Assembly (NCBI RefSeq): GCF_003334255.1
Contig: NZ_QOWU01000037.1
Reading direction: 5' to 3' (one strand)
DNA length: 51,502 nucleotides
DNA from: Escherichia coli
GTDB lineage: Bacteria; Pseudomonadota; Gammaproteobacteria; Enterobacterales; Enterobacteriaceae
The position numbers and the translations under genes were made by a program. Under the pieces are notes generated by a model. It was not told the DNA's origin. It saw nothing but the letters and a program-made list of their open reading frames with translations, and searched no databases. Positions 305-1,078 of this stretch are shown piece after piece (position 1 is the stretch's first letter; every line of letters begins with the position of its first letter).

Positions 305-1078
305 ATGGATATTACTGAGTTTCCTTCTGGAGTAATTGAACACCTTGGCTGGTATGTATACCGATTGATTGATCCGAGGGACGGAAGCACCTTCTATGTA
401 GGGAAAGGCAAAGGTAACCGCGTATTTGCCCATATGCGCGGTGAAGTGGCAGCGACTGATGATGACGAGTTACTGAGCAACAAGCTAAAGCAAATTAGAG
501 AAATAAGGTTAGCAGGACTTGAGGTTATCCATGTCATCCATCGACACGGAATGACTGATGAAAAGACGGCGTACGAAGTTGAAGCAGCACTTATTGATGC
601 CTACCCTGGGTTAACGAATATCATGAATGGTGCTGGCAGCAATGAATTCGGCGCCGCGCATGTCAAAGAGTTGATAGCAACATATCAACCCGAAACCATA
701 ACATTTCATCATAAAGCATTAATGATTTCCGTTAACAGAAGTGCAAAGGATTCAGAGCTTTATGATGCGGTTCGATTTAGCTGGCGCATTAATGTCTCTC
801 GCGCCAGCCAAGCAGAAGTCATTCTTGCTACTGTAAGGGGGATCGTTCGAGGGGTTTTCATTGCTGATAAATGGCTCAAATCAACACGTGAAAATTTCCC
901 TACGATGAAATACTGGGACGAGGATCCGGACTTTGAGGCAACACAAAGTTCTCGCTATGGTTTTGAAGGTCGAGAAGCCCCACCTGAAATAGCAAATCTT
1001 TATCTTGGAAAAAAAATACCAGATGAATTAAGAAAAAAAGGAGCTATGTCCCCGGTCCGTTACTCACCTAATTTTTGA
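305..1078 (+). CDS. GIY-YIG nuclease-domain protein (COG3680/LEM-3-like N-terminal domain plus an uncharacterised C-terminal domain); prophage cargo gene
   Basis: N-terminus [29 protein letters not shown] ... YEVEAALID fits the GIY-(10-11 aa)-YVG..R..E motif order. The ATG at 305 is preferred over the TTG at 254. The region is AT-richer than the neighbouring tail genes. Confidence 0.7.

Follow-up and report, generated by a model that had tools for sequence, protein, structure and literature searches.

A prophage-encoded CMoRE nuclease

The open reading frame (ORF) at positions 305-1078 on the plus strand of a 51,502-nucleotide stretch of Escherichia coli DNA (contig NZ_QOWU01000037.1, referred to here as the window) encodes, at a probability we put at roughly 93%, PD-T4-3/CMoRE, a prophage-borne, single-protein restriction nuclease directed against the 5-hydroxymethylcytosine (5hmC) and glucosyl-5-hydroxymethylcytosine (5ghmC) DNA of T4-like phages. 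An earlier interpretation made from the letters alone (the sequence-only reading) had singled out this gene as candidate defence cargo and called its function not demonstrated. That verdict is superseded: this is not a new system but a known gene whose mechanism has been characterised, the family having been found in 2022 and its mechanism and structure published in January 2026. Our analysis adds the delimitation of the mobile unit to ~1 kb (108-1136), including a fossil tRNA-Ser attachment (att) fragment, and the apparent alternate use of the slot beyond the prophage invertase by two type IV enzymes, CMoRE and McrA.

The ORF begins with an ATG at 305, and its stop codon ends at 1078. It is as the sequence-only reading had described, except in the length of its product, which is 257 amino acids; the 258 given there is the number of codons with the stop included. 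An in-frame TTG at 254 would lengthen the protein by 17 residues, but we prefer the ATG at 305 because the crystallised protein starts there, with MDITEF. Searches with defence-system and phage protein profiles returned matches over essentially the full length of the product. The PADLOC PD-T4-3 model PDLC04031 aligned with residues 1-256 over positions 1-255 of its 256 (E = 2.4e-140), and phrog_5356 matched end to end (E = 2e-143). At the level of single proteins, identity reached 98.4% (four substitutions in 257 residues) with the E. coli O157:H7 CMoRE of PDB entries 9U75/9U8D (phmmer against 9U75, E = 3.7e-172 over 1-257) and 85.2% with the protein of 9U7U/9U7Z. The four substitutions, written from the window to 9U75, are T51A, E55D, Q169K and N197H, none of which lies in the GIYxY-YIG motif. 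Strain Sakai carries the crystallised sequence as ECs_0285 (WP_000355475.1), and the window protein is identical to WP_000355484.1 as annotated in strains G1/2 and FRIK944. Clustering at 90% identity placed it among 1045 member sequences.

Both domains of the family are present in the predicted product. The nuclease domain of GIY-YIG type at the N-terminus (305-670, plus strand), which the sequence-only reading had recognised, matched Pfam PF22945 (LEM-3_GIY-YIG) over residues 28-110 at E = 2.1e-14. Its motif is complete (W-Y17-V-Y19-R, F-Y31-V-G-K, N-R39), with the tyrosines Y17, Y19 and Y31 encoded at 353-355, 359-361 and 395-397 and the motif arginine R39 at 419-421; E91 and E93 are present as well. 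An acidic run, D52-D53-D54-E55 (458-469), occupies the inserted alpha2-alpha3 loop that has been published as an autoinhibitory lid. Residues 125-257 (677-1075), including Y127, make up the C-terminal modification-sensing domain. Pfam offered no match for these ~130 residues, including when 38 members of the family were searched with the cutoff relaxed to E <= 5, and NCBIfam returned none for the window protein, in keeping with the earlier description of the region as unassigned; the domain itself is nonetheless the published 5hmC/5ghmC sensor and corresponds to the fold of the CMoRE crystal structures. A residue-by-residue check found Y17, Y19, Y31, R39, R80, V92, L96 and Y127 all conserved, V92 and L96 being tetramer-interface positions, and every functional residue named in the accessible text of PMC12923530 is kept.

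The protein thus combines a two-domain 'type I' architecture of ~257 residues with a full-length match to the family profile. Its nuclease and sensor domains are separate, and no methyltransferase gene adjoins it in the window or in other thrW contexts, as expected of a type IV enzyme. It also behaves as a single-gene system: between the thrW and ssrA contexts described below the neighbours differ, and only the cassette at 108-1136 is common to both. Published clones holding the ORF alone were sufficient as well. The partner genes that had been suspected to the left of the window are accordingly not needed. One candidate considered there, an AraC-family regulator gene upstream in thrW contexts, is missing from the ssrA context and was set aside.

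Published activity and predicted mode of action

Vassallo et al. discovered PD-T4-3 in 2022 (PMC9519451): one gene of ECOR68 (COG3680, GIY-YIG) was validated as the whole system, and the functional clone extended beyond the ORF by 189 bp on the upstream side and 33 bp on the downstream side. Liu et al. (Nat Commun 2026), who determined the structures 9U75/9U8D and 9U7U/9U7Z, renamed it CMoRE and reported that expression from the native promoter reduced plating of T2, T4 and T6 by about 10^5-fold, and that T4(hmC) was restricted but T4(C) was not (PMC12923530). The purified enzyme bound and cleaved 5hmC and 5ghmC DNA, sparing DNA with cytosine or 5-methylcytosine (5mC); it cut at CN11/N9G, leaving 2-nt 3' overhangs, in a modification-dependent manner and almost without sequence requirement across the whole T4 genome (PMC12923530). 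Deleting the gene from its native host, a clinical isolate, sensitised that strain to Tevenvirinae phages (PMC12409345). Anti-T-even defence from a native promoter is thus on record for a protein only four substitutions away from ours (PMC12923530, PMC9519451), which bears out the proposal that this is a defence gene.

The same work supplies a structural account. CMoRE forms a tetramer, a dimer of dimers that is needed for defence and has V92 and L96 at its interface, and its C-terminal domain binds 5hm-dCTP, the backbone oxygen of Y127 touching the 5-hydroxymethyl group (PMC12923530). Catalytic, loop and tetramer mutants behaved as the model predicts, Y17, Y19 and Y31 being among the residues probed, and neutralising the acidic loop (mutant 4A) led to cleavage of ordinary DNA and to toxicity (PMC12923530).

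This mechanism was worked out on proteins 98% and 85% identical to the one in the window, and similarity of that degree suggests that it transfers. On this basis the window protein would assemble as a tetramer, a dimer of dimers. Its C-terminal domain would bind DNA with 5hmC or 5ghmC and leave ordinary cytosine and 5mC DNA unbound. The N-terminal GIY-YIG domain, using Y17, Y19, Y31, a catalytic arginine and glutamate and Mg2+ or Mn2+, would then cut both strands between two modified cytosines in the CN11/N9G arrangement. The DDDE loop (52-55) is predicted to cover the active site and so to spare unmodified host DNA. Incoming T-even phage DNA would be degraded and the cell would live, a direct form of defence rather than abortive infection. 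Expression from the gene's own conserved upstream region would shield the lysogen, and hence the prophage, from T4-like phages. The gene itself moves between prophage types as a ~1 kb cassette. A lysogen of this kind should resist T2/T4/T6-like phages, which is relevant to the choice of phages in therapy or typing.

Weighing the assignment

Several observations count against this assignment or temper it. The experimental data concern relatives rather than the exact allele WP_000355484.1, whose activity would follow from its similarity to them. Its four differences from the Sakai protein include E55 in the acidic loop, a conservative change that gives DDDE at residues 52-55, as in the homologue of avian pathogenic E. 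coli (APEC) O1, where Sakai O157 has DDDD; two of the other differences, Q169 and N197, fall in the sensor domain. In a consensus scan of 1-1300, no canonical sigma-70 site turned up upstream of the gene on the plus strand, and with its own promoter the APEC O1 homologue gave no more than weak defence (PMC12923530). Because of these last two points, we can only infer expression in this lysogen by analogy with the published clones. In a matching strain, an insertion sequence (IS) element and IS fragments separate the gene from the distal att site, which may also mean that the mobility of the prophage is incomplete.

The four substitutions, two of them in the sensor domain, speak for the alternative that fares best, namely that the window allele has decayed or been re-specialised and is either inactive or shifted in preference, for example towards the Mom-type carbamoylmethyl-adenine or arabinosyl-hmC. 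The specificity of the family is plastic: PD-T4-3Capno, a homologue of 48% identity, also cleaves Mom-modified Mu DNA (PMC12366544), and the O157 enzyme mildly restricts arabinosyl-hmC phages (PMC12923530). We nevertheless consider such a change improbable. The reading frame is intact, the allele sits in the cluster of 1045 sequences, and the identical protein recurs in the unrelated strains G1/2 and FRIK944; every experimentally probed residue is unchanged, and E55 is the state of the APEC O1 enzyme too.

Less probable still, and rejected here, is the possibility raised by the sequence-only reading that the protein is a selfish homing endonuclease, a GIY-YIG enzyme like I-TevI that would cut a cognate phage or host site to spread its own gene. 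PHROG 314, labelled 'homing endonuclease', does align weakly over part of the protein, within the GIY-YIG domain only (E = 0.0021), and depositors have named full-length homologues in the jumbo phages OBP and N1M2 'putative homing nuclease'. Yet the full-length match goes to PD-T4-3 and not to homing families, and Pfam detects no NUMOD, IENR1 or zinc-finger DNA-binding module. The gene lies outside introns and inteins, interrupts no conserved gene and occupies two different prophage cargo slots rather than one cognate target. Published cleavage follows base modification with hardly any sequence requirement (PMC12923530).

An abortive-infection nuclease, killing the infected host by degrading its DNA, is equally remote and is likewise rejected. 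The toxicity of mutant 4A and its attack on ordinary DNA do indicate a latent capacity for self-damage, but wild-type CMoRE-bearing cells grow normally at a multiplicity of infection above 1 with host DNA intact during infection (PMC12923530), and the same has been reported for the ECOR68 system. The evidence that bears on these alternatives also led us to reject a DNA-repair role of the UvrC/LEM-3 kind.

A ~1 kb cassette shared between unrelated prophages

Alignments placed the CMoRE gene in a mobile cassette of about 1 kb (108-1136, plus strand) that comprises the upstream region, the ORF and a downstream hairpin. Between the SfV-type prophage at thrW and lambdoid prophages at ssrA, the cassette is 97.8% identical. 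At a DNA identity of at least 90%, the gene was found in 822-852 of 5426 complete E. coli genomes, about 15%; the junction with pin occurred in 577 genomes and that with a tail-fibre assembly gene, typical of the ssrA context, in 209. In the latter setting the gene stands at the end of a lambdoid prophage, flanked by the tail-fibre assembly gene, which it follows directly, and by a type II restriction-modification pair. The pair is a separate system and is absent from the prophage studied here.

By coordinate mapping, the functional ECOR68 clone corresponds to window positions 116-1111, within 108-1136. Since the shared cassette thus contains the whole functional fragment, the gene behaves as a self-sufficient moron of ~1 kb, and the occurrence of this unit in unrelated lambdoid prophages agrees with the moron pattern, including an upstream region of its own, that had been proposed from the sequence. 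In the neighbourhood comparison called for at the time, positions 130-304 and the tRNA-Ser relic bases 108-129 travel with the gene between the two contexts, and no neighbouring gene does.

The non-coding region at 130-304 (plus strand) is nearly invariant across four contexts. To judge from the published native-promoter and ECOR68 clones, the native promoter must lie within it. Further upstream, 76-129 on the minus strand holds the 3' part of a serU-type tRNA-Ser(CGA) gene, which aligns at 96% with phage sequences recorded as tRNA-Ser or attP. ARAGORN called no tRNA at 76-129, and the Rfam tRNA-Sec match there stayed below threshold (21.8 bits against a gathering cutoff of 47). The relic and the nuclease gene are on opposite strands, ~175 bp apart; in Sakai and FRIK944 the relic reaches the CCA end (8937-9000 in one O157 record, about 12001-12060 in another), but here it is cut at ~76 by the end of an IS. 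Its bases 108-129 (22 nt) accompany the cassette into the ssrA context. It is probably the fossil attachment site of an earlier element integrated at serU, and neither a functional tRNA nor a regulatory RNA. The IS end occupies 1-79 of the window, with a 26-bp terminal inverted repeat at 54-79 whose partner lies at 10864-10889 of the G1/2 record. In that record the whole element, inserted in the tRNA-Ser relic, measures ~1.2 kb (10864-12079), and its transposase gene is frameshifted.

At the other end of the cassette, a hairpin at 1089-1143 lies where the nuclease gene and pin converge, between their stop codons. Its minimum free energy is -20.9 kcal/mol (z = -3.7 against shuffles), and it probably acts as a bidirectional terminator; a terminator consensus scan of 1-1300 called none, the hairpin having no T-run. 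A sub-threshold Rfam match to CssrB at 1102-1158 on the minus strand (32 bits against a gathering cutoff of 76) is best read as this intergenic hairpin. As the ECOR68 functional clone ends within it, the hairpin is not needed for defence.

As had been seen from the sequence, the DNA around the cassette is AT-richer, with a GC content of 0.40-0.45 over 1-1200 as compared with 0.54-0.61 in the prophage structural genes from ~3.6 kb onward. The tail-fibre/invertible region at 1.7-2.5 kb is likewise AT-rich (0.38-0.47).

In the ssrA records (4087-7943), the nuclease gene, a type II restriction endonuclease gene and a DNA cytosine methyltransferase gene together form a small defence cluster. If that methyltransferase makes 5mC, the indifference of CMoRE to 5mC would render the two systems compatible.

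A megablast search of a phage collection with 1-1300 found no sequenced phage carrying the gene at the DNA level. Translated searches of phages (tblastn) brought up no homologue above 45% identity, and most of those found came from jumbo phages. These are full-length proteins with both domains, at 38-45% identity, encoded by lytic phages of ~250-285 kb (Serratia phages Moabite, 2050HW and Kodama, Pseudomonas phage OBP, Klebsiella phage N1M2 and Pantoea phage Survivor) and annotated as homing nuclease or hypothetical protein. Jumbo phages may turn the homologue on co-infecting phages with hmC-type DNA.

The gene occupies the distal cargo slot of an SfV-type prophage

The host element is a prophage of the SfV/SfIV type integrated at thrW, as had been recognised: at the DNA level, its structural genes match those of Shigella phages SfIV, SfII, SfI and SfV at 97-98% identity. 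Its integrase gene (37311-38474) adjoins thrW, the tRNA-Thr(CGU) gene at 38489-38564. A second thrW att repeat was not detected inside the window, either by a pattern search allowing 3 mismatches or by short-word blastn (query 38381-38620, target 1-2000). The view to the left comes from strain G1/2, which matches window 1-1772 at 99.9% DNA identity. There, ~3 kb beyond the window start, lies a 56-bp match containing the 47-bp thrW att core, which puts the nuclease gene within the att boundaries of the element. Between the gene and that att site, G1/2 carries an IS3 fragment, the AraC-family regulator gene mentioned above and a frameshifted IS. The annotation of Sakai likewise places the gene within a prophage, Sp1, at thrW next to pinE.

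The slot is thus the one between the tail-fibre and invertase genes and the distal att site, which is where the sequence-only reading had placed the gene. In Shigella Sf phages, gtr genes lie between the tail-fibre genes and att. The neighbouring invertase gene, which switches the tail fibres and stands outside the defence system, is of the Pin/Gin type (1136-1690, minus strand; Resolvase 7e-51, HTH_7 5e-13; pinE in RefSeq) and is convergent with the nuclease gene, again as noted from the sequence. The adjacent tail-fibre segment (1752-2500) has the opposite orientation in G1/2, a strain otherwise 99.9% identical, which suggests that the Pin/Gin-type host-range switch is active or was so recently.

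In the related Escherichia phage vB_EcoM-689R6, which shares the Mu-like baseplate genes, mcrA (5-methylcytosine-specific restriction enzyme A) lies immediately past the DNA invertase (record positions 28-1517). This makes the position beyond the invertase look like a hotspot where type IV restriction genes are carried, CMoRE here and McrA in vB_EcoM-689R6.

O157 strains have a further element at thrW, the P4-like satellite prophage Sp2, which lies in tandem at the duplicated att site (record positions 5239-9700 in one O157 record, 2175-6636 in another). Its cargo includes an AAA ATPase as well as a defence cluster of the ABC-three-component type, and thrW is therefore an integration hotspot at which defence-carrying elements are stacked.

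A possible PUA-like origin of the sensor domain

Sequence and structure searches by Liu et al. retrieved no homologue of the C-terminal domain, which they called a distinct fold (PMC12923530). The profile and structure search recommended by the sequence-only reading, empty for Pfam and NCBIfam, gave weak but uniformly PUA-like matches in Foldseek (YTH/EVE/ASCH; E = 0.05-0.5, probability <= 0.77, template-modelling (TM) score 0.35-0.49). Weak matches among viral structures include ASCH and DUF3850 proteins, and sequence profiles lent no PUA-like support to the domain. From these structural comparisons, at somewhat less than even odds, the sensor may belong, in cryptic and strongly diverged form, to the PUA-like (EVE/YTH/ASCH) superfamily.

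That superfamily is the source of the sensors of most other modification-dependent restriction enzymes. Relative to its established members in such enzymes (the EVE-HNH nuclease VcaM4I, MspJI and YTH-like McrB N-terminal domains), the CMoRE domain differs in that the resemblance amounts to TM scores of 0.35-0.49 without sequence support and in that 5hm-dCTP, in the published structure, sits at an edge rather than in a pocket (PMC12923530). If the domain is PUA-like, the site that receives a flipped base from duplex DNA may be a conserved aromatic pocket distinct from the edge site occupied by free 5hm-dCTP. Candidate pocket residues, invariant in an alignment of 38 sequences, are Y153, W160, W190, F198, Y233 and Y253. 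Such a sensor, if real, would affect the engineering of CMoRE as a reagent for mapping 5hmC.

Foldseek also linked the sensor to BFVD entry A0A8S5N646, a 320-residue protein of the uncultured Myoviridae sp. ct8ME27 (E = 1.2e-9, 27% identity). As this protein pairs a CMoRE-like sensor with a PD-(D/E)XK instead of a GIY-YIG nuclease, it suggests shuffling of the sensor module among different nuclease domains.

Comparison with characterised restriction systems

The closest relatives are the CMoRE proteins of O157:H7 Sakai (ECs_0285) and ECOR68 (RCO27183.1), of the same family, length and two-domain organisation and 98.4% identical. With the Sakai enzyme the window protein shares the GIYxY-YIG motif, the acidic loop, the tetramer-interface residues, Y127 and the thrW slot next to pinE. 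It differs from it at T51, E55, Q169 and N197 (A, D, K and H in Sakai), changes that are conservative to moderate. The surroundings differ as well: Sp1 is a 10.6-kb remnant, whereas the prophage here is full length, with ~38 kb within the window, and here an IS end truncates the tRNA-Ser relic.

McrA, of prophage e14 and relatives, resembles CMoRE as a single-gene, modification-dependent nuclease and in its equivalent slot beyond the invertase of vB_EcoM-689R6, which has the same Mu-like baseplate/tail module. The two enzymes differ in that McrA has an HNH nuclease and another sensor, with no sequence similarity. McrA targets 5mC and 5hmC and is not known to act on glucosylated hmC.

Closer in its products is the PvuRts1I/AbaSI group, which cuts at a fixed distance between two modified cytosines (~N11-13/N9-10) and leaves 2-nt 3' overhangs, very similar to CMoRE. 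These type IV enzymes also accept 5hmC and 5ghmC and not 5mC. PMC12923530 likewise compares them with CMoRE. They are built differently, from a PD-(D/E)XK (Vsr-like) nuclease and an SRA-like sensor, and have no sequence relationship to CMoRE. GmrSD and BrxU, type IV enzymes that act on glucosyl-hmC DNA, share with CMoRE the target, T-even DNA, and the logic of a single polypeptide. They differ in their DUF262/DUF1524 composition (ParB-like and HNH-like) and in their dependence on nucleoside triphosphates, and are unrelated in sequence.
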